From Candidatus Nanoarchaeia archaeon (GTDB lineage: Archaea > Nanobdellota > Nanobdellia > Woesearchaeales > UBA583): a stretch of 64,000 nucleotides of DNA. The stretch lies in assembly GCA_050292425.1 (NCBI GenBank), contig JBNKLP010000002.1:561-64560 (forward strand). The letters run 5' to 3'. The first letter of the stretch is position 1. Each line of letters starts with the position of its first letter. Shown here one piece after another: positions 28,986 through 37,369 of the stretch. The notes beneath the pieces were generated by a model. The model saw only the letters and a list, made by a program, of their open reading frames with translations, was not told the origin of the DNA and did no database searches. The translations under genes were made by a program, and so were the position numbers.

Positions 28986-29633
28986 ATGTTCTGGATAAAA
29001 AAACTTAGACCTGAAGATGAAACAGGTTATCTTTATCTAAGAGAAACCATTTATGTAAGAGATAAAAGATCTCATAAAAGAACACCAAAAATTATTGGAA
29101 ATAGACAAAAAACAAATGAACGAGGCAAATATTCAAAGAAAAAAGATACATATTGTGGTAAAATAATAGAACTAAATCCTACTAAATTTATAACTTTCAA
29201 AACTTATATTGAAGAAAATCTCAAAAAAGACTTTACAGAATATAAAATAAACTCAGCTTTTGACCAAATGCATGAAGATTTTGTTGATTATTTGTTATTA
29301 GTTCATGAAATAGATAAAGAAGAATTCTCCAAAAATTCTCCAAAAACTGTTTATCAAATAGCAAATGGATATTTTTGTCCACCAACAATAAAATATCTTA
29401 AAGATTTTAATCCTAAACCAAATGCATCATCGCACTCAGAAATTGAAAGATTTGCGAACAGATGTCAGGATTCCTGTATTTATGATGAAGAAATAATTAT
29501 GTCACTCTATTCAAAGCTTCTACCAGATAAGTACAAAGATATTGAAGAAGAAATAGAACAGCTTAGTGGACATAAGCTAAAGACTCAGCAAACTTCCTTT
29601 GAGGAGTATATGAGGAAACAGCATAAGAAATAA
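28986..29633 (+). CDS. hypothetical protein (basic N-terminus)
   Basis: 215-aa ORF with no recognisable motif. Confidence 0.5.
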   Translation: MFWIKKLRPEDETGYLYLRETIYVRDKRSHKRTPKIIGNRQKTNERGKYSKKKDTYCGKIIELNPTKFITFKTYIEENLKKDFTEYKINSAFDQMHEDFVDYLLLVHEIDKEEFSKNSPKTVYQIANGYFCPPTIKYLKDFNPKPNASSHSEIERFANRCQDSCIYDEEIIMSLYSKLLPDKYKDIEEEIEQLSGHKLKTQQTSFEEYMRKQHKK

Positions 29634-29634
29634 T

Positions 29635-29925
29635 TTAAGGTCTATCATTCAACCTTAAAGAAACAAAATATTTTGAATTTCCTAATTCAATATATTTTCC
29701 TTTAAAATCTTCTATTTCAGAGTAAATTTTTGAATCACTTCTAGTAATTATATTATCATTATTATCAATAAATGCATATGTAGTAGGAGATTCCCCCCCT
29801 ATTAAAGGACAATGTCCAACCAATTCATCTGGATCTATATCCCAAAAATTTCTTCCACTATTCCCATTTTCTTCAAAGCAAGCTCCCCAAAAACCATTAA
29901 ATTTCTTTTCCAAATTTTCTACCAT
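29635..29925 (-). CDS. hypothetical protein, last gene of the parA string
   Basis: 96-aa ORF 31 nt downstream of the 136-aa gene on the same strand. No motif. Confidence 0.45.
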   Translation of the reverse strand: MVENLEKKFNGFWGACFEENGNSGRNFWDIDPDELVGHCPLIGGESPTTYAFIDNNDNIITRSDSKIYSEIEDFKGKYIELGNSKYFVSLRLNDRP

Positions 29926-29956: not shown

Positions 29957-30367
29957 TTACTTTAATTTCTCAGCAAATGCTTTCAATTTCTTCTTATCCA
30001 CTTCAAAATTCCCCTCAGAATCAATTTGTGTATAAAGGTCATACAGGCCATACTTTTCAGCAAAAACCATCAAAAACATAATGTATTTTCCAGAATCTAC
30101 ATAATCCTTTTCAAAATCAAGCTCATCAAATTTAACCTGAAGTCTGTTTACTCTTTTGTCAAAACTTCTGGATATATTCCCAGGATAAATCTTGAAAGAT
30201 TTTGGAATTCTTTTAACCTTATTGCTAGAAGTTTTAATTGCTTTCTTTTGCGGTTTTACAGCTTCATTTTTAGGCTCTTTTTCTCTCTCTTTAAGTTTGT
30301 CTTGAGCTTTTTTAGCCCAATCCACTTTCTTTACATGTTTAAATGGATTAACAATTTCATCTGCCAT
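29957..30367 (-). CDS. small Lys-rich protein, candidate ParA partner / centromere-binding protein
   Basis: 136 aa, with 17 Lys in the first 60 residues by my count. A possible strand-helix-helix follows (RIPKSFKIYPGNISRSFDKRVNRLQVKF ... SGKYIMFLMVFAEKYGL). It lies directly downstream of parA, with a palindromic site and a TATA-like box in the 59-bp spacer. Confidence 0.4.
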   Translation of the reverse strand: MADEIVNPFKHVKKVDWAKKAQDKLKEREKEPKNEAVKPQKKAIKTSSNKVKRIPKSFKIYPGNISRSFDKRVNRLQVKFDELDFEKDYVDSGKYIMFLMVFAEKYGLYDLYTQIDSEGNFEVDKKKLKAFAEKLK

Positions 30368-30407
30368 AAAAAAACTATTTCATTCTAATTTAAAAATAAT
30401 TGTTGTT

Positions 30408-30430
30408 GTTTACTAGTAAACTAAGTTTAC
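30408..30430. promoter_or_regulatory. palindromic operator/centromere-like site GTTTA-CTAG-TAAAC plus a third half-site
   Basis: GTTTACTAGTAAAC lies at 30408-30421, then TAA, then GTTTAC at 30425-30430, which overlaps the parA stop codon. The site is immediately upstream of a TATA-like ATTTTTAAATTA that precedes the 136-aa gene ATG (30367). Confidence 0.5.
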
Positions 30431-31215
30431 TCTAACAATTTTTCAACCTTCTGCGCAAGTTTCTCAAAATCTTCAGTTGCTCTTTTATGTTCATACTTTC
30501 TTATTGGAGCACTTTCATATTCAATAGCACTCACACAATACATTCTGGCTTTTTTAATGTGAGAATTCTCTCGGATAGGCTCAGCAATAAACTCTGCATC
30601 CAAATTCTCATAAACCATATCAATAATTGCCTTGTTGTCTTTCTCAAACCTTTTATCCCATCGATTTGGAACAACCAAATATTTCAAATCTTTCTCAAGT
30701 AAAGATGCCTCAGATAACCGAGAAATATCGTTAATGGTCAAAACAAGCCCAGATAAAGAATCGGTATCAAAATGCATTGGTGCAACCAACAAATCAGATG
30801 CAATCAAAGCAATCTCAGTCAAAGTGTCAGCAACTCCTGGACTTAAATCCAAAACAACATAATCATAATCTAGATTTTTAATCCTTTTGGCCAAAGCTCT
30901 ATAATAATTTCCAACACTTTCAAGATACTTTGCAACCTCGTGCAAACCAATATCCGCAGAAATCAAATCCAAATTCTCAGAAATATTGTAAATAGAAGTA
31001 TAAAAATCAAACTCATCATCTCCAAGCAAATTAGAACTGGTTAACTTGTCCTCATCAATATTTTTCAGAAATGCTTTTGTGAGATTAGCTTGAGAATCCA
31101 TATCAATAAGAAGAACTTTCTTTTCTTTTTGTGCTAAAACATATCCCAAATTAGAAGAAATAGTTGTCTTCCCAACCCCTCCCTTTGAAACCTTAACACA
31201 AATAACTTTTGTCAT
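30427..31215 (-). CDS. parA: ParA/Soj-family partition ATPase
   Basis: The deviant Walker A is VSKGGVGKTTISSNLG. It is followed by LLIDMDSQANLT and the Walker B-like VVLDLSPG. The 262-aa size fits. Confidence 0.85.
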   Translation of the reverse strand: MTKVICVKVSKGGVGKTTISSNLGYVLAQKEKKVLLIDMDSQANLTKAFLKNIDEDKLTSSNLLGDDEFDFYTSIYNISENLDLISADIGLHEVAKYLESVGNYYRALAKRIKNLDYDYVVLDLSPGVADTLTEIALIASDLLVAPMHFDTDSLSGLVLTINDISRLSEASLLEKDLKYLVVPNRWDKRFEKDNKAIIDMVYENLDAEFIAEPIRENSHIKKARMYCVSAIEYESAPIRKYEHKRATEDFEKLAQKVEKLLE

Positions 31216-31270
31216 AGAAAAAAAACTTTAAAATTCTTTTTAAATATTGGTAGTAGTTTTCCAGTTACTT

Positions 31271-31288
31271 AGGTTTAGAGGTAAACCT
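31271..31288. promoter_or_regulatory. palindromic operator/centromere-like site AGGTTTA-GAGG-TAAACCT
   Basis: The 7-bp arms are the same half-site family as 30408-30421. The site lies between the polB stop (31291) and a TATA-like ATATTTAAAAAG upstream of the parA ATG (31215). Confidence 0.5.
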
Positions 31289-31290
31289 AT

Positions 31291-33597
31291 TCAACCAAAA
31301 AATCCACTAAGTGACTTTTGCTTAGTACTTCCAACAATTTCTTCAAAATTCACTCCAAAACACTCTAAAATATCATCACTAACTCCTTTAAGTTGCTTTT
31401 CTATATAATGTTCATAATCATAATTTGGGTTTACTAGCAAACTTATATGCTTAGGTCCATCTTTCAACTGAACGTACTTTACAATTCTTCCTTCAAAATT
31501 CTGTACCTCACGAGCAGCTTTCACATGTGGAGGAGTAGTTTTAGTATAATGTGATAGTGGTTTTGTTATTTTCTTAGTGTAAACTAACTTAGAATTAAAC
31601 TCTCCTTTTCTAAGCCTTGCAACTCTATCTTTGATAAAATTCTCAATTTTCTCTTTCTTTGTTTCCTTAAAAATCAACTCAATCAAATCTATCTGAAAAT
31701 CTTTTGCCAGTTCTGTCCAATCTCCACGAATGGCTTCCATACCAACAAACTTTGTCTTAGAAGAAATTTCATCGAAACCTACGTACCTTTTCTTGGAAGC
31801 AATAAAGAATTTTGAAAATATTTTCTCCATTTCAATTGTCAAAAATGACTTTTGTCCGAATTCCTTCTCAACCCACGATTCAAAATAATCATTAAACTGT
31901 TTTTCAAGTGAAATTCCAACACTTTTCTTCTCATTTAAGGATTTACCTTCCAAACCTGCAATTTTCACGAAAACACTATCCGTGTCTCCATAAACAACTT
32001 TGTGGCCTAGAGACTCAGCAAATTCTTTTGACATTTGAATAATTTTCCGTCCAAAAGCTGTAATAGCTCCTCCAACATCCCTGTTATGAAATCTGGATTT
32101 TGGAGATGCCATTGCCCCATAAAAAGAATTCATTGTAATTTTAAGAGCATATGATTTAAATTCATCTTTTATTTTCTTTGCAGAATCTCTTTCTTTATAT
32201 AATTTTAAAATTAATTCAGGAAGAATTCCAGGTTTACTAGTAAACTTAGCCCCATTAGGCGCTTTAATTTCTTCTCCCAAATCAACTGTAAATGGATCTA
32301 TGTTAAAAGTCATAATTATTGAAGGATAAAGAGATTTAAAGTCAAACACAAACACATCTTCATAAAATCCTTTCTCAGGATCAATTACATATGCCCCTTC
32401 AATGGGAGCAGTTGCATCATAATTAAAATTGGAAGATGCAACATATCCCCTTTCATGAAGCTTTTTCAAATACATGATATCAAGTGCAGCAATAGGGGAT
32501 TTCACTTTCATCAAGGGAGTTCCTGTAATAATGGATCTTTCATTCATTAAATCTAATAAACCTAATTTTTCAGCAATTTGAGCTGTCAAGAGAGAATCTT
32601 TAAAATTATAGTTTACCAGTTTACTCGGATTACTTACAAACATATCCTCAATCGCTTGGCATTTGTTTTGGATACTATCTGCATCACTTTCATCTTCTGT
32701 AAGATCTATTTTTTCATCTCCTAAAACTTCTTTTGCAACAGTATTTAGCTTATAATCTTCAAAAGAAATAAAATTTGTTTTAAGCAATTGTATCAAATCA
32801 TATACGATAAGGCCAGGACAATTCATTGTACTATCTCTGAAAAAATCATTTACAATACGAAGTTTACAATCTCCATTATAATTGGAGAACTTGAATTCAA
32901 TTCCATGTATGGTCATTCTATCTTTAATAACCTTAAAATCAAAATCAATCACATTCCAACCAAAAATTATTTGAGGGGAAAACCCAATAATATCTGATTT
33001 GAATTTTTCTAATAATTCTTTTTCATTTTCAAGTATTTCACATTCAAATCCTTCATATTTTCCTTTCTTTACTTCTTTTAGCTTGTTTACTGGTAGTTTG
33101 TCTTTGCTGAAGTAAACTTTATTGAATTTACTCTCAAACGGATTATATGAGCTTATCATTATTATTTCTTGTTCTTTGATATCTGGGCCTATTGATTCTA
33201 TATCAATTGAAACATATTTTAATTTAGGTTTACCAGTAAACTCAGATAGCTTTATATTATTGTCAATTATGTATTTATGTTCAGAAATCAAGTCTGCCTC
33301 ATATATTTCACATTTTGCATCTCTAAAAAGTCCTAGAATATATTCGTGTAGTTCTTTACTTGAAATTTGTATTTCAACAACTTTTTCTTCATTTTTGTTT
33401 TTAAAATTCTTCTTTGACAAAACTATTTTATCCGTTTTTACTTTCAAACTATCAAAATCCTTTTTCTTTGCTAGAATTGTATATGGTATCTGTTTTTTTT
33501 CAATAATTGTTTCTTGTTTGTTATCTACGTAGAATAGGCTTAATTCAATATGATCTTCTTTTTCCTCTTTTTCTATTTTATATAGAAATTTGCCCAT
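31291..33597 (-). CDS. polB: family B DNA polymerase
   Basis: Exo I is YVSIDIESIG, Exo II is GWNVIDFDF and Exo III is YNFKDSLL. Polymerase motif A is DFKSLYPSII, motif B is KITMNSFYGAM and motif C is YGDTDSVF. 768 aa with no intein. Confidence 0.9.
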   Translation of the reverse strand: MGKFLYKIEKEEKEDHIELSLFYVDNKQETIIEKKQIPYTILAKKKDFDSLKVKTDKIVLSKKNFKNKNEEKVVEIQISSKELHEYILGLFRDAKCEIYEADLISEHKYIIDNNIKLSEFTGKPKLKYVSIDIESIGPDIKEQEIIMISSYNPFESKFNKVYFSKDKLPVNKLKEVKKGKYEGFECEILENEKELLEKFKSDIIGFSPQIIFGWNVIDFDFKVIKDRMTIHGIEFKFSNYNGDCKLRIVNDFFRDSTMNCPGLIVYDLIQLLKTNFISFEDYKLNTVAKEVLGDEKIDLTEDESDADSIQNKCQAIEDMFVSNPSKLVNYNFKDSLLTAQIAEKLGLLDLMNERSIITGTPLMKVKSPIAALDIMYLKKLHERGYVASSNFNYDATAPIEGAYVIDPEKGFYEDVFVFDFKSLYPSIIMTFNIDPFTVDLGEEIKAPNGAKFTSKPGILPELILKLYKERDSAKKIKDEFKSYALKITMNSFYGAMASPKSRFHNRDVGGAITAFGRKIIQMSKEFAESLGHKVVYGDTDSVFVKIAGLEGKSLNEKKSVGISLEKQFNDYFESWVEKEFGQKSFLTIEMEKIFSKFFIASKKRYVGFDEISSKTKFVGMEAIRGDWTELAKDFQIDLIELIFKETKKEKIENFIKDRVARLRKGEFNSKLVYTKKITKPLSHYTKTTPPHVKAAREVQNFEGRIVKYVQLKDGPKHISLLVNPNYDYEHYIEKQLKGVSDDILECFGVNFEEIVGSTKQKSLSGFFG

Positions 33598-33654
33598 TTT
33601 CTTTATTTTTGCAAGTTCTTTTGTATTTATATAATCTCCTTTTCAATTAATCTT

Positions 33655-33901
33655 TTTTCTTTAAATTTAATTTAAATTTGTTTATTTATAAATTATTTTC
33701 TCATTTTGGTCCTTATTTTTACTTCTTTTCTTAAATTTAAGTTAAATTTAAGATATATTCCTGTTTTAGTTCTTATTTCTTGTTTTTTGTGCATTTTTGG
33801 GTCTTTTTCTTTAAATTTGGCTCAAATTTAAGTTAAATCCAAGTTAAATCTAAGAATTATCTCTCAATTTAATAAAAATAAGGATTATTTTTACTTCTTT
33901 T
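33655..33901. repeat. modular direct repeats in the polB-gatA intergenic region
   Basis: TTTTCTTTAAATTT occurs at 33655-33668 and 33805-33818, with a 1-nt-shorter copy at 33726-33739. AAATTTAAGTTAAAT occurs at 33733-33747 and 33824-33838, continuing as tandem AAGTTAAATYY units to about 33855. TTATTTTTACTTCTTTT occurs at 33713-33729 and 33885-33901, with a partial copy at 33971-33986. Confidence 0.7.
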
Positions 33902-34085
33902 TAGAAAAAATAAGATAACTTTACATATTTAATTAAATTAGTTTATATTTATTCATTTTTAATTTTGAAACCTTATTTTTCTTTTCAAAATGGCCTAATT
34001 TGACTATATGTTGCTTTTTGAATACTTTTTCTAATTTTTTTGAAAAATACATAAAGTTTATATATTATATAAAACTGCCTCATTT

Positions 34086-35468
34086 ATGACAAATAACGAC
34101 AATTTGGTGGTTAAAGTAAAGAAATTAGCTTCTGGAGAGCTTTCATGTGTAAAAAATGTTAAAACCTTTTTGTCAAATATAGAAAAAAACAACAAAAAAT
34201 ACAACATTTTTCTTGAAATAAACACGGATGCTGAGCAAATTGCAGCAAAATTGGATAAAAAAAGAGAAAATAAAGAAAAATTAGGCTCTCTTTTTGGTTT
34301 GGTTATTGCTTTGAAATCTAATATATCAATAAAAGACATGACTATTTCCTGTGCTTCTAAGACTCTAGATAATTATAAGGGAACTTTTAATGCTGATATT
34401 GTTGAAAAACTTTTAAAAGAGGATGCTATAATTATTGGGATTGTAAATAATGATGAATTTGCCTCTGGAGGTTCTGGAGAGAATTCTGCCTTTCAAAATA
34501 CAATCAATCCATTTTCTTCAAAAAGAATACCTGGTGGATCTTCATCTGGTTCTGCAGCAGCTGTAGCTGCAGATATGTGCGATATAGCACTAGGTTCAGA
34601 TACTGGAGGAAGTATTAGAAATCCTGCATCTCATTGTGGAATTGTAGGAATAAAACCATCGTATGGTAGAGTCTCAAGATATGGTCTTGTTGATCTTTCA
34701 ATGAGCCTTGACCAAATAGGACCATTATCTAAAGATGTATATGGTTCAGCTCTTATAATGAAAGTTCTTGCTGGTTCAAGTCCAAACGATGCAATAACTA
34801 TTGACAAACCTGTTTCTGACTACACAAAATTTGAAGATAAAAAACTTACAATAGGAGTAATAAAGACATTTGATAAACTTATTGATGATGATAGAATAAG
34901 AAAAATTCTAAACTTTAGAATTGATCAATTAAAGAAACTAGGTCATAAAATTGTTGAAATCGACATTAAGAACATTGATCTTGCAATTCAAGCATACTAT
35001 CCAATCGTCTATACTGAATTCTTTTCAGGAACAAGAAAATTTGATGGAGTAAAATATGCTCATAAAATTGAAGATACTGCTGGGACTGAGGCTTTAAGAA
35101 GACTTCTTGGAGGCAATGAAATTTCAAGGTCTGAATTCGATGGTGCATATTACAAAAAAGCTCTAAAAGTAAAAGAAATCATTGCAAAGGAATTTGATAG
35201 AGTATTCAAACAGGTAGATATAATCCTGACTCCAGTAACACCAATGCTGCCTCATAAATTTGGAACTCAATTAACTACTGAGCAAATGTATGCCTACGAT
35301 GCATTCACAATTCCTGCAAACCTAGGAGGAATATGTGCAGGAGTTGTTTCAATTGATACAATAAAAGAGGATGATGGCCCTGTTAGTGTTGGATTACAAA
35401 TTTATGCAAATAAATTTGAAGAAAAGAAGCTTTTTGATTCTATGAAGATTATTGAAGATATTAAATGA
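34086..35468 (+). CDS. gatA: aspartyl/glutamyl-tRNA amidotransferase subunit A (amidase signature family)
   Basis: The amidase signature is GGSSSGSAAAVAA...GSDTGGSIRNPAS, and SRYGLV is also present. The 460-aa size fits. Confidence 0.85.
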   Translation: MTNNDNLVVKVKKLASGELSCVKNVKTFLSNIEKNNKKYNIFLEINTDAEQIAAKLDKKRENKEKLGSLFGLVIALKSNISIKDMTISCASKTLDNYKGTFNADIVEKLLKEDAIIIGIVNNDEFASGGSGENSAFQNTINPFSSKRIPGGSSSGSAAAVAADMCDIALGSDTGGSIRNPASHCGIVGIKPSYGRVSRYGLVDLSMSLDQIGPLSKDVYGSALIMKVLAGSSPNDAITIDKPVSDYTKFEDKKLTIGVIKTFDKLIDDDRIRKILNFRIDQLKKLGHKIVEIDIKNIDLAIQAYYPIVYTEFFSGTRKFDGVKYAHKIEDTAGTEALRRLLGGNEISRSEFDGAYYKKALKVKEIIAKEFDRVFKQVDIILTPVTPMLPHKFGTQLTTEQMYAYDAFTIPANLGGICAGVVSIDTIKEDDGPVSVGLQIYANKFEEKKLFDSMKIIEDIK

Positions 35469-35626
35469 GTAAACTGGGTTTACCAATAATCTTTCGAAAA
35501 ATTCTTGCCTTTTTTTCAAAACTTTAAACCTTTTTTTCAACAAAAAAATATTATTTATCCCAAAAGAAAATTTTCGGATAAACTTTGAAATAAACTTATT
35601 TAAAAAGAAAAGAGTTAATCGATTAT

Positions 35627-37369
35627 ATGAAGAAAAATATTTTATTTTTAATTCTTTTATTTTATATTCAAATAGCTTCTTCTGCCTACATTTCAGAAAT
35701 AGACTTTATAGATAATGAATTTGTTGAAATATATTCAAATGAAAATTTAAACTTAAATGATGCAATTTTTTATGATGATGAGGGAGAAGATAAGGCAAAT
35801 TCCTTAACTTTGGTTCAGAATAAAAACTCACCATACTATCTAATTGTTGGACAGAACTTTCTTGATGCATATAATTATGAGAATTTTGATTGTACAATCT
35901 ACAAAACAGGAAAAACCAATCCAGGTTATTATGGTCTAAAAAGTGGAGGCGAAGATATAACTCTAAAAATAGACAACTCAACCTCTCTATCCTGGACAAA
36001 AGACAAAGATTATTCATTTAATGAAAATGAAACATTAAATTATAATCTCAATAATTCTTCATACTACATTCATCTAAAATCTCCATGTTCAAACACTCCT
36101 CAAACAATTTCAGAGCAAACTCAAGAACCTAAACTTGAGCAAAAGCAAATACAAACTTCTTCAGAAGACACTTCTTGTAATTATCAATTTTCCATCTTAC
36201 CAGAAAAACAACTTTTTACTGACAAAATTCAGTACAAATTCCAAACTAATGCAACAGATTTTGAAATAGAATACTGGATTGAAGACTATGATGGAAACAT
36301 TGCAAAAGATAAAACAACAACTAAAAATAAAAACACAAAATCTTATACACCTCCAGAATTTACTCAGATTTATATTCTTAAAGCAAAACTTAATGTAGAA
36401 GATTGCATCATTTTAGCTTCAAATCAGACGACTTTTTACTCAAAACACATAGAATGTTCTCAAACTTCAGATTCATCTTCGGAATCCTCTTCAGACTCAA
36501 ACATTAAATCTTCAATTTCCTACATTTCAATCATCAACAAGGGTGAACTTTTATCTGGTTCATCAAATACACTTTTATATGAAATTTACAAAGGAGATAC
36601 TGCAAAAAGAGCAATTTATATTTATCAAAACAACCAGAAAATTCATACTTTTGAGCTTGAGAAATATACAAGAATAAAAGGAAGACTCCCAATTTCAGAA
36701 GAAACCAATGAAATAAAATTTGAAGGATTCAATTTATCTGAATCAATCACACTAAGTAAAAGTAATCCTAGTTTACCAGAAAACTCCATAAACTCAAATC
36801 AATTCTTTTCTATATACAACATAACTCAGAATTCAAATAAAATTAATTTCTTCATATACTCAAATTTTGAAAATTTAACTGCAACCTGTTACATTTACCT
36901 AAACAAAACCAAGATTTCAGAGGAAATAAACTTAAACAAATCTTCTCAATATTCTTTGCAAGTTGATTTAGAAAAACTTCTAAAGAAAACTTCTGCAGTT
37001 AAATTCAACTTAAAATTAATTTGTAAATATAAAAAATCACATTTAAAATCCTATAATTATGAAAATTCTTACTTCAATTTCACAATGCCTGAAAAATCCT
37101 ATGCGCAGGATTTAATTGATGATTATGATTTTGGATATTTAGAAACAAATTCAAATCATTATGAAACTAAATATAGCTCAAACTTCCTATCAACTCTTTC
37201 TTCAAATGTAAAAACTCAATCATTGTTTTCAGACACCCAATTAGTAGAAATTCCTACCAAATACACACAAGAATACCAAAGTGAAGGAAAAACACTCAAA
37301 GACAAATCATTCTACTTTATTTTTGTAGGAGTTGTAATTGTTCTAATTCTAATGTTGTTGAAATGGTAA
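35627..37369 (+). CDS. secreted, C-terminally membrane-anchored protein with an N-terminal lamin-tail-like domain
   Basis: The signal peptide is MKKNILFLILLFYIQIASSA. YISEIDFIDNEFVEIYSNENLNLNDAIFYDDEG matches the LTD pattern (i.EI..n...EFVELyN...vdL.g..l.D). The C-terminal TM is FYFIFVGVVIVLILMLL. Confidence 0.55.
   Translation: MKKNILFLILLFYIQIASSAYISEIDFIDNEFVEIYSNENLNLNDAIFYDDEGEDKANSLTLVQNKNSPYYLIVGQNFLDAYNYENFDCTIYKTGKTNPGYYGLKSGGEDITLKIDNSTSLSWTKDKDYSFNENETLNYNLNNSSYYIHLKSPCSNTPQTISEQTQEPKLEQKQIQTSSEDTSCNYQFSILPEKQLFTDKIQYKFQTNATDFEIEYWIEDYDGNIAKDKTTTKNKNTKSYTPPEFTQIYILKAKLNVEDCIILASNQTTFYSKHIECSQTSDSSSESSSDSNIKSSISYISIINKGELLSGSSNTLLYEIYKGDTAKRAIYIYQNNQKIHTFELEKYTRIKGRLPISEETNEIKFEGFNLSESITLSKSNPSLPENSINSNQFFSIYNITQNSNKINFFIYSNFENLTATCYIYLNKTKISEEINLNKSSQYSLQVDLEKLLKKTSAVKFNLKLICKYKKSHLKSYNYENSYFNFTMPEKSYAQDLIDDYDFGYLETNSNHYETKYSSNFLSTLSSNVKTQSLFSDTQLVEIPTKYTQEYQSEGKTLKDKSFYFIFVGVVIVLILMLLKW

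Follow-up and report, generated by a model that had tools for sequence, protein, structure and literature searches.

A ParA-type ATPase, a small lysine-rich partner and clustered GTTTAC/GTAAAC hexamer pairs form a candidate chromosome-partition cassette in Woesearchaeota-type DPANN archaea

In the literature that we surveyed, archaeal chromosome segregation is described in molecular detail only for the SegAB system of the Sulfolobales, and full-text literature searches returned no partition system described for DPANN, Woesearchaeota or Nanobdellota. Does a locus on contig JBNKLP010000002.1 of Candidatus Nanoarchaeia archaeon encode one? We analysed a 64-kb stretch of this contig (the window), in which a gene for a ParA-type ATPase (parA) precedes a gene for a lysine-rich protein of 136 amino acids, here called the adaptor, and in which paired GTTTAC and GTAAAC hexamers cluster around both genes. 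A preliminary description of the window had proposed that the adaptor is the DNA-binding partner of ParA and that the hexamer pairs are its centromere and operator sites. We give a probability of roughly 70% to a closely related reading, namely that the locus is a two-gene DNA-partition cassette carried on the chromosomes of Woesearchaeota-type DPANN archaea and inherited vertically. In it, ParA, a centromere-binding adaptor of a new family and the adaptor's cognate DNA elements would carry out partition and autoregulation in the manner of SegAB or type Ib systems. The adaptor family, the motif and the lineage are new here, and the class of mechanism is already known. Sequence alone suffices to define the ATPase, its dedicated partner and the probable DNA sites.

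The product of parA carries the deviant Walker A motif that had been noted for it, as VSKGGVGKTT from residue 9 of 262, and is without an N-terminal DNA-binding or helix-turn-helix (HTH) extension. It matches Pfam AAA_31 (E = 6.7e-33), as well as CbiA, and PHROG 164, 'ParA-like partition protein' (7e-48). Its closest relatives in the PDB are ParA/Soj-type proteins (1e-15 to 1e-13), including Soj of Helicobacter pylori (6IUB, 4.5e-14), and Sulfolobus SegA (7DUT) is matched at 8e-8 over residues 5–148. The nearest NCBIfam models are PrgP, which scores best, and ParA_partition, both under cut-off. Scans with Pfam and NCBIfam find no ParB-type domain in the partner or in neighbouring open reading frames (ORFs), in agreement with the earlier view that this is not a canonical ParABS system.

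The adaptor is tied to this ATPase throughout its known distribution. In each of the 15 related loci (L numbers below) with readable upstream DNA, the adaptor gene is preceded by a co-oriented ParA gene, which bears out the proposal that the 136-residue protein is a dedicated ParA partner. The two genes are directly adjacent or overlapping in L002, L003, L004, L005, L009, L010, L011, L015, L016, L017 and L018, with overlaps of 4–8 nt in L004, L005, L011 and L015. Elsewhere other genes have been inserted between them: an HD-domain (YfbR-like) gene in L008 (6353–6937) and L012 (6333–6962), a gene of unknown function in L013 and a ParE-toxin gene pair in L014 (3548–4068). The order gatA, polB, parA, adaptor is found in the window and in L003, L004, L005, L009, L011, L012, L013, L014 and L015, and in most loci it extends further, to a gene for a 215-residue protein, EMC3-like, ThiF and eIF2-alpha genes. 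Retention of this wider order in most loci, that of the complete genome CP060218.1 among them, shows the cassette to be chromosomal and vertically inherited. Identity between genomes is about 50% in the adaptor and 53–65% in PolB, a family B DNA polymerase whose gene is a conserved upstream neighbour of the cassette and not itself a component. The window as a whole reads as ordinary chromosome, with genes for RtcB, SecY, a PAN-type AAA ATPase, a beta-CASP nuclease and eIF2-alpha and one tRNA-Ser.

The adaptor is as lysine-rich as had been described, with 17 Lys among its first 60 residues. Its homologues (n = 26, 118–172 residues) are all unnamed or annotated 'hypothetical' and, where labelled, derive from Nanoarchaeota or Woesearchaeota metagenome genomes. 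No family for it is present in Pfam, NCBIfam or PHROGs, no PDB sequence matches it, and no members were found in IMG/VR. The family is narrow, because a profile search of 1.84 billion representative proteins retrieves just 16 representatives at 50% identity.

Alignment of the homologues reveals three parts. A conserved N-terminal peptide (residues ~5–21, consensus IINPFKQxKKTDWAKKA) has N7, P8, F9 and W17 invariant and K20 nearly so; it is followed by a Lys/Pro-rich linker (~22–52) whose length differs by tens of residues among homologues. The conserved C-terminal domain (53–136) has the consensus RVAKSFKIYPGxISRxFDKRVNKLQVxFDDLDYEKxYVDSGKYIMFLMAFAEKYxLYELY, then a loop and a last helix, with invariant positions R53, K56, S57, F58, K59, F69, K71 and R72 and, further on, G93, K94, Y95, M97, F98, L99, M100 and E104. 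An AlphaFold2 model of the full-length monomer is poor, with a predicted local distance difference test (pLDDT) score of 66, and its Foldseek search against the PDB is meaningless. Residues 50–136 modelled as a monomer from a 35-sequence alignment reach a pLDDT of 93.3 and a predicted template modelling score of 0.76. In this model an extended conserved segment, KVKRIPKSFKIYPG, precedes helices at 64–82, 92–106, 108–111 and 125–135 (full-length numbering).

The last helix-loop-helix (within residues 92–136) has EF-hand-like matches that fall below threshold (PDB 1JFJ, E = 0.5; Pfam EF-hand_7 in three members). We regard these weak matches as a resemblance only and do not assign an EF-hand on their basis. 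EH domains, which consist of paired EF-hands, bind NPF peptides, and it is conceivable that the NPF of the adaptor (residues 7–9) contacts the C-terminal domain within or between molecules; Foldseek gives no support for this.

Are the hexamer pairs a property of this locus rather than of the DNA at large? Exact GTTTA-N4-TAAAC palindromes occur four times in the 64 kb (30408, 31273, 32232 and 33228), all within 30408–33241, against 0.21 expected, and none of 100 dinucleotide shuffles contains at least four. With up to one mismatch there are 15 matches in the window against 5.6 expected. The 3.1 kb from 30146 to 33241, 4.8% of the window, holds 16 of its 43 GTTTAC/GTAAAC hexamers (binomial P = 7e-11), whereas the maximum for an equal-sized window over 20,000 random placements is 12. 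The pattern GTTTACNNGTAAAC with up to two mismatches has 11 sites, of which 8 lie within 30408–36784; the other 3 have two mismatches each, and chance predicts 3.1. All site coordinates of the preliminary description, for the exact, one-mismatch, third half-site, direct and everted forms, proved correct on checking the sequence, as did its count of about 16 half-sites in 3.1 kb and its estimate that an exact palindrome is expected well under once per 64 kb.

Single hexamers in the rest of the window show a strong strand polarity. In positions 1–27000 and 37500–64000 the + strand has GTAAAC 20 times and GTTTAC once, whatever the strand of the gene, and 4–8 copies of GTTTAC would be expected there under Markov models of orders 1–4. 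This asymmetry ranks 4 among 1035 hexamer pairs (P = 7e-5 uncorrected, ~0.07 corrected), and between 27 and 37 kb the single hexamers are mostly reversed in orientation relative to the rest of the window. The polarity may be a polar architectural signal or a k-mer skew.

Two intergenic sites of the cluster (Table 1) stand before the promoters of the cassette. One edge of the 30408–30430 site, which in gene orientation reads GTAAAC-TTA-GTTTAC-TA-GTAAAC, lies 40 nt 5′ of the adaptor ATG and about 8 nt upstream of a TATA-like box at 30388–30400. The palindrome at 31271–31288 lies about 20 nt upstream of the TATA-like box of parA (31238–31248). This placement beside the TATA-like boxes of both genes had been noted before, and we find that it is conserved in relatives. 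Where a separate promoter serves the adaptor gene, a hexamer or palindrome is present 37–45 nt before the ATG, shortly before the TATA-like box. This is seen in seven loci (the window, L008, L009, L010, L012, L013 and L014); the sequences in the relatives are CTAGTAAAC (L008, L009, L012), TTACTAGTAA (L010), GTTTACTCGAAAAC (L013) and GTTTACTCATAAAC (L014). Before parA, L005 has an identical GTTTACTAGTAAAC 32 nt upstream, L008 has GTTTACTTATAAAC, and L002, L003, L004, L009, L011 and L015 have GTAAAC half-sites. L003 has GTTTACTAATAATC and GTTTACTAGAAATC shortly after its gatA stop, like the window's site at 35469.

Furthermore, when up to two mismatches are allowed, the locus of every relative has more matches than shuffled DNA predicts; L003, for instance, has 8 (0.65 expected) and L014 has 5 (0.2 expected). 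Of 50 such matches in relatives, 35 fall within 2 kb of the parA start, which represents 31% of the scanned DNA (P = 1.3e-8), and in 27 of these 35 an A flanks the searched pattern, thereby extending the palindrome as it does in the window. The claim that the pairs are locus-specific DNA elements thus stands, both in their conserved position before the two promoters and in their concentration around the operon in every relative.

Some loci depart from the hexamer itself. In L004 (7057–7105; the complete genome CP060218.1, which is of higher GC content), two direct copies of GTAATCTGAGA surround GGTAAACTGTAAC before parA. In L011 and L015, GATTAC/GTAATC takes the place of one half-site before parA (GATTACAGGTAAAC), which suggests that it is a tolerated variant of the hexamer.

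The sites within polB afford a test of constraint at the level of DNA. Seven relatives have, exactly 409 bp before the polB stop and about 0.5 kb or more upstream of parA, the sequence GTTTTCAAGTAAAC-YTA-GTAAAC, an imperfect palindrome with a third hexamer that is read AGT TTT CAA GTA AAC YTA GTA AAC and encodes SFQVNLVN. At this site 13 of 14 Asn codons are AAC, which makes up 32% of Asn codons across these polB genes (P = 4e-6), and 13 of 13 Val codons are GTA, with a background of 45% (P = 3e-5). This codon bias therefore reveals a constraint on the DNA and not on the protein. The PolB of the window has QIDLIE at this position, without a site, and its gene has four other sites instead. They fall in variable parts of PolB, where the residues depart from those of relatives (LLVNP, KLVNY and the indel-rich SEFTGKPK stretch); a one-mismatch version of the 32232 site is found at the aligned position in L013.

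A different arrangement accompanies two distant members of the adaptor family, P0030 (L016) and P0039 (L017). Both are adjacent to a ParA gene and are flanked by arrays of 2–7 GTTAAC/GTAAAC hexamers with a 9-bp period. In L017, three GTTAAC units occur twice before parA and three more directly after the adaptor stop. The arrays of L016 comprise 4, 7 and 2+2 units. The seven-unit array (GTAAAC-tta-GTAAAC-gca-GTTAAC-gaa-GTTAAC...) combines the hexamer of the window with the GTTAAC variant. The only genes common to these loci and the chromosomal ones are those for ParA and the adaptor. Arrays of this kind occur at plasmid centromeres, and because those of the distant members flank the operon on both sides they are centromere-like rather than operator-like. 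P0030 and P0039 also have R in place of K59 in the conserved extended segment; its occurrence alongside GTTAAC, in two cases, is a hint of protein–DNA covariation.

The surroundings of distant family members suggest a BREX-carrying mobile or integrated DPANN element for which the parA–adaptor pair would act as partition cassette. In L016 (2774–10014) and L018 (1–4820) the pair lies immediately upstream of genes of a BREX (bacteriophage exclusion) defence system (brxA, brxB, brxC). In L016 these are followed by a methyltransferase gene, and an integrase-like gene and the hexamer arrays stand beside the cassette. GTTAAC-N3-GTTAAC-N3-GTTAAC arrays also occur in 116 IMG/VR contigs, and we rejected them as part of the same system because none of the 116 encodes this ParA or adaptor.

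Table 1. Genes and hexamer-pair sites of the candidate partition locus, in window coordinates
Feature	Position	Strand	Description
Adaptor gene (136-residue ParA partner)	29957–30367	-	ORF; candidate centromere-binding adaptor
parA	30427–31215	-	262-residue deviant-Walker-A ATPase ORF
polB	31291–33597	-	Family B DNA polymerase, 768 residues; hosts in-gene sites
Adaptor promoter site	30408–30430		GTTTAC-TA-GTAAAC-TAA-GTTTAC; exact palindrome GTTTACTAGTAAAC at 30408–30421 and third hexamer at 30425
parA promoter site	31271–31288		18-bp palindrome AGGTTTA-GAGG-TAAACCT, containing exact GTTTAGAGGTAAAC at 31273–31286
In-polB site	31429–31442		GTTTACTAGCAAAC, one mismatch; local peptide LLVNP differs from that of relatives
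In-polB site	32232–32245		GTTTACTAGTAAAC, exact; codons AAG TTT ACT AGT AAA CCT
In-polB site	32611–32624		Direct repeat GTTTAC-CA-GTTTAC
In-polB site	33228–33241		GTTTACCAGTAAAC, exact; indel-rich variable part of PolB
Intergenic site right after gatA stop (stop codon at 35468, window ORFs)	35469–35491		GTAAAC-TGG-GTTTAC-CA-ATAATC; everted pair (35469–35483) and degenerate third hexamer
Outlying site in gene for 580-residue secreted protein	36771–36784		GTTTACCAGAAAAC, one mismatch; cluster membership uncertain

From these observations we infer that the adaptor binds DNA and stimulates the ATPase and that the cassette acts in segregation. Dimers of the adaptor C-terminal domain would each recognize one GTWAAC hexamer, and since GTTAAC is a two-fold symmetric 6-mer it would fit one symmetric dimer per hexamer. 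Neighbouring dimers would cooperate on hexamers 8–9 bp apart, whether inverted, direct or everted. Binding to the pairs that precede the TATA-like boxes of the two genes could bring about autoregulation, and the further pairs in polB and beyond gatA could extend these sites into a multi-site 'centromere' of 3–7 kb around the operon, on which a partition complex forms. The N-terminal peptide (I/V-NPF-x-Q-x-KK-x-D/N-W-AKKA), on its flexible Lys-rich linker, would contact nucleoid-bound ParA–ATP and stimulate hydrolysis, and this hydrolysis would drive a ratchet-type separation of sister chromosomes such as has been proposed for ParF/ParG, delta/omega and SegA/SegB.

Which known system does the cassette resemble most? 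Like SegAB of the Sulfolobales it is archaeal and chromosomal, with a ParA gene followed by a gene for a small partner that sometimes overlaps it, and its short palindromic sites stand before the operon start, are concentrated around the operon and are mostly intragenic. SegB has a conserved N-terminus that contacts SegA, lineage-specific insertions and a conserved DNA-binding C-terminus (PMC12139799), a layout that the adaptor would share if its C-terminal end binds DNA, as we suppose; ParG is laid out in a similar way (PMC8682754). The sites found for Sulfolobus SegB by chromatin immunoprecipitation sequencing are 13-bp palindromes, ~83% of them intragenic, and are concentrated near segAB (PMC12284271). 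In contrast, the adaptor has no detectable similarity to SegB in sequence or by Foldseek, the ParA is not specifically SegA-like, the motif is different, and the host belongs to DPANN rather than to the Thermoproteota or Euryarchaeota. The sites here are also built from a 6-bp unit, occur as direct and everted pairs too, and form long arrays in relatives. Homology of the partner to SegB was tested and not found, and for this reason we do not classify the cassette as SegAB.

The resemblance to type Ib plasmid systems (ParF/ParG of TP228, delta/omega of pSM19035, par2 of pB171, PrgP/PrgO) is of another kind. In these systems the partner is a small dimeric protein with a flexible basic N-tail, and short iterated centromere units, in direct and inverted orientation beside the operon, double as operator (PMC8682754). 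As in type Ib systems, the ParA is short and is without an N-terminal DNA-binding domain, its best NCBIfam match (below cut-off) is PrgP, and the small partner gene lies downstream, co-oriented and co-inherited with parA. Hexamer pairs precede both TATA-like boxes, and in L016 and L017 arrays that make a candidate centromere flank the operon. The mixed inverted, direct and everted hexamer pairs at 8–9 bp found here correspond to what is known for omega-type ribbon-helix-helix (RHH) proteins (Weihofen et al. 2006, cited in PMC8682754). However, the partner here is not recognizably RHH, the cassette is not on a plasmid but on chromosomes, in synteny conserved through a lineage, and its sites are scattered over several kb of coding DNA instead of forming one compact array; because an RHH fold of the partner is not established, we do not place the cassette among canonical type Ib systems either. 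With bacterial ParABS (Soj/Spo0J), whose parS sites are palindromic, partly within genes and clustered near the par operon, the cassette shares a Soj-like ParA and sites of the same disposition, but neither the partner nor its neighbours have an HTH/CTPase ParB domain.

Other explanations of the locus have to be weighed against partition. The hexamer pairs could be transcriptional operators only, with the small protein or some other regulator acting on parA, on the adaptor gene and perhaps also on polB and gatA, and with ParA positioning a cargo other than the chromosome. The two best-conserved sites do lie at fixed positions just upstream of TATA-like boxes, and ParA/MinD-family ATPases with small basic partners that position non-DNA cargo, such as McdA/McdB, are established in the literature. 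We nevertheless consider this explanation unlikely, given that most window sites are deep in coding sequence and far from promoters, that the in-polB site of seven relatives is under synonymous codon constraint, that arrays of 3–7 hexamers bracket the operon in distant members, one of them following the adaptor stop in L017, and that the ParA is closest to DNA-partition ParAs. Somewhat less probable again is true SegAB membership in a new phylum, with the ParA as SegA and the adaptor as a genuine SegB that has diverged strongly. Such an origin would account for the matching gene order with its overlaps of 4–8 nt in L004, L005, L011 and L015, for three-part architecture with variable insertions between conserved ends, as in SegB (PMC12139799), for the matching order of helix, extended segment and three helices (PMC8682754) and for the similar pattern of sites (PMC12284271). 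Yet phmmer and the 26-sequence profile miss SegB (7DUV, 7DV2) at E values up to 10, Foldseek with the pLDDT-93 model does not retrieve it, the ParA is nearer to bacterial ParA/Soj-type proteins (1e-15) than to SegA (8e-8), and the motifs are unrelated (GTTTAC-N2-GTAAAC versus TCTAGA-S-TCTAGA). Moreover, SegB was present only in the Sulfolobaceae and a few Euryarchaeota in the published survey (PMC12139799).

Very improbable, in our estimate, is a role of the repeats as elements of a replication origin, either origin recognition box (ORB)-like or plasmid-type iterons bound by an initiator, with the adjacency to polB reflecting that origin. The sites adjoin the gene for a replicative polymerase, the 9-bp arrays of L016 and L017 are iteron-like, and plasmid iterons often serve Rep proteins. 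An archaeal Orc1/Cdc6-dependent origin would nonetheless be expected as an intergenic, AT-rich unwinding region that has ORB repeats on its flanks and orc1/cdc6 beside it. Here most window sites are in coding sequence and no AT-rich unwinding element lies between sites, none of ten large ORFs tested elsewhere in the window encodes Orc1/Cdc6, and GC skew, which has one sign over most of the 64 kb, does not switch lastingly at the locus. The hexamer also has no known resemblance to the ORB/mini-ORB consensus, and parA and the adaptor gene are the only genes that accompany the hexamers in all contexts. The cluster might, finally, be a by-product of base composition or of the amino acid sequence of PolB and have no function as DNA, since conserved peptides can yield half-sites, for example ISLL (AGT TTA CTN) and KFT (AAG TTT ACT). 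This explanation is effectively refuted by the shuffle, permutation and codon tests: shuffles and permutations exclude composition, and the in-polB site of the relatives has a synonymous-codon bias. In addition, the in-gene sites of the window occur in variable PolB stretches whose residues depart from those of relatives, two sites are intergenic, and the same hexamers recur in non-coding arrays.

Several points weigh against the partition reading that we favour. The specificity of the motif was judged on the 64 kb of the window and on 3–16 kb per relative. The codon P values assume that the seven relatives are independent, and the window's own four in-polB sites were not found at the aligned positions of relatives, whose PolB proteins, at 53–65% identity, are too distant for a synonymous-site test. 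The earlier question whether in-gene sites are conserved at synonymous positions could thus be answered for a different in-polB site, codon-constrained in seven relatives; the window's own sites are not conserved in these relatives. What points to binding of the hexamers by the adaptor is their co-occurrence, and ParA-family ATPases also position cargo other than DNA.

The fold of the adaptor adds to these points. Profile and hhalign searches give no sequence link from the adaptor to SegB, ParG, omega, Arc, CopG or MetJ, and Foldseek with the monomer model of the C-terminal domain returns nothing below E = 2 from BFVD or from the PDB, which includes SegB (7DUV and 7DV2), ParG and omega. With E values up to 10 allowed, the 26-sequence profile retrieves no RHH protein from the PDB sequences. 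In hhalign, comparisons with Arc, Mnt, CopG, MetJ, ParG and omega give probabilities below 1%, a result that is only indicative; RHH control pairs were aligned in the correct register. The C-terminal domain runs from an extended KSFKIY segment through a helix and a loop to a further helix, a pattern that could fit RHH, but with 9–14 residues this loop is unusually long. The strands of RHH proteins form solely in the dimer. The RHH-like segment proposed in the preliminary description thus has no match in Pfam, NCBIfam, PHROGs or the PDB, none to RHH proteins or SegB by Foldseek, and an hhalign probability below 1%; a search for an RHH or SegB/ParG-like fold with a confident monomer model of the C-terminal domain matches nothing in the PDB, and on these models an RHH identity appears unsupported.

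It is possible, and we suggest it only tentatively, that the C-terminal domain is a DNA-binding fold unrelated both to HTH ParB-like proteins and to RHH, so that the adaptor would be a third class of partner for Walker-type partition ATPases, placing one dimer on each 6-bp GTWAAC and belonging to a family common to DPANN chromosomes and mobile elements. If the fold were new, the repertoire of centromere-binding proteins would be wider, and if this third class were real it would offer the first experimentally approachable handle on chromosome segregation in the ultrasmall DPANN archaea. How general this would be is limited by the narrowness of the family, for which 1.84 billion proteins yield 16 clusters at 50% identity. 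Because the motif is short and the relatives have plasmid-style arrays, two small recombinant proteins and synthetic DNA would be enough for a direct test of the question, although none of the organisms is in culture.

The neighbours of the cassette contribute further observations. A gene for a 215-residue protein (window 28986–29633, + strand) is kept near the cassette in 13 chromosomal loci, mostly in convergent orientation to the adaptor gene; its product has no family match, its sole weak hit being to the HTH of BsuBI/PstI (E = 0.011). We rejected it as an obligate third component because it is absent from L016–L018 and lies several kb away in L003 and L005, and it is probably syntenic rather than part of the cassette. 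Between it and the adaptor gene lies an ORF of 96 amino acids (29635–29925, - strand) without a family match and with a relative in L014 only (38% identity), which may be a lineage-specific insertion or not a gene. The L003 contig (CAXPJQ010000046.1) is labelled as a Bdellovibrionales bacterium metagenome-assembled genome, yet it has the gatA, polB, parA, adaptor order of Nanoarchaeota/Woesearchaeota and is probably mis-binned. The PolB of L010 (1–2532) contains an intein (Intein_splicing, LAGLIDADG).

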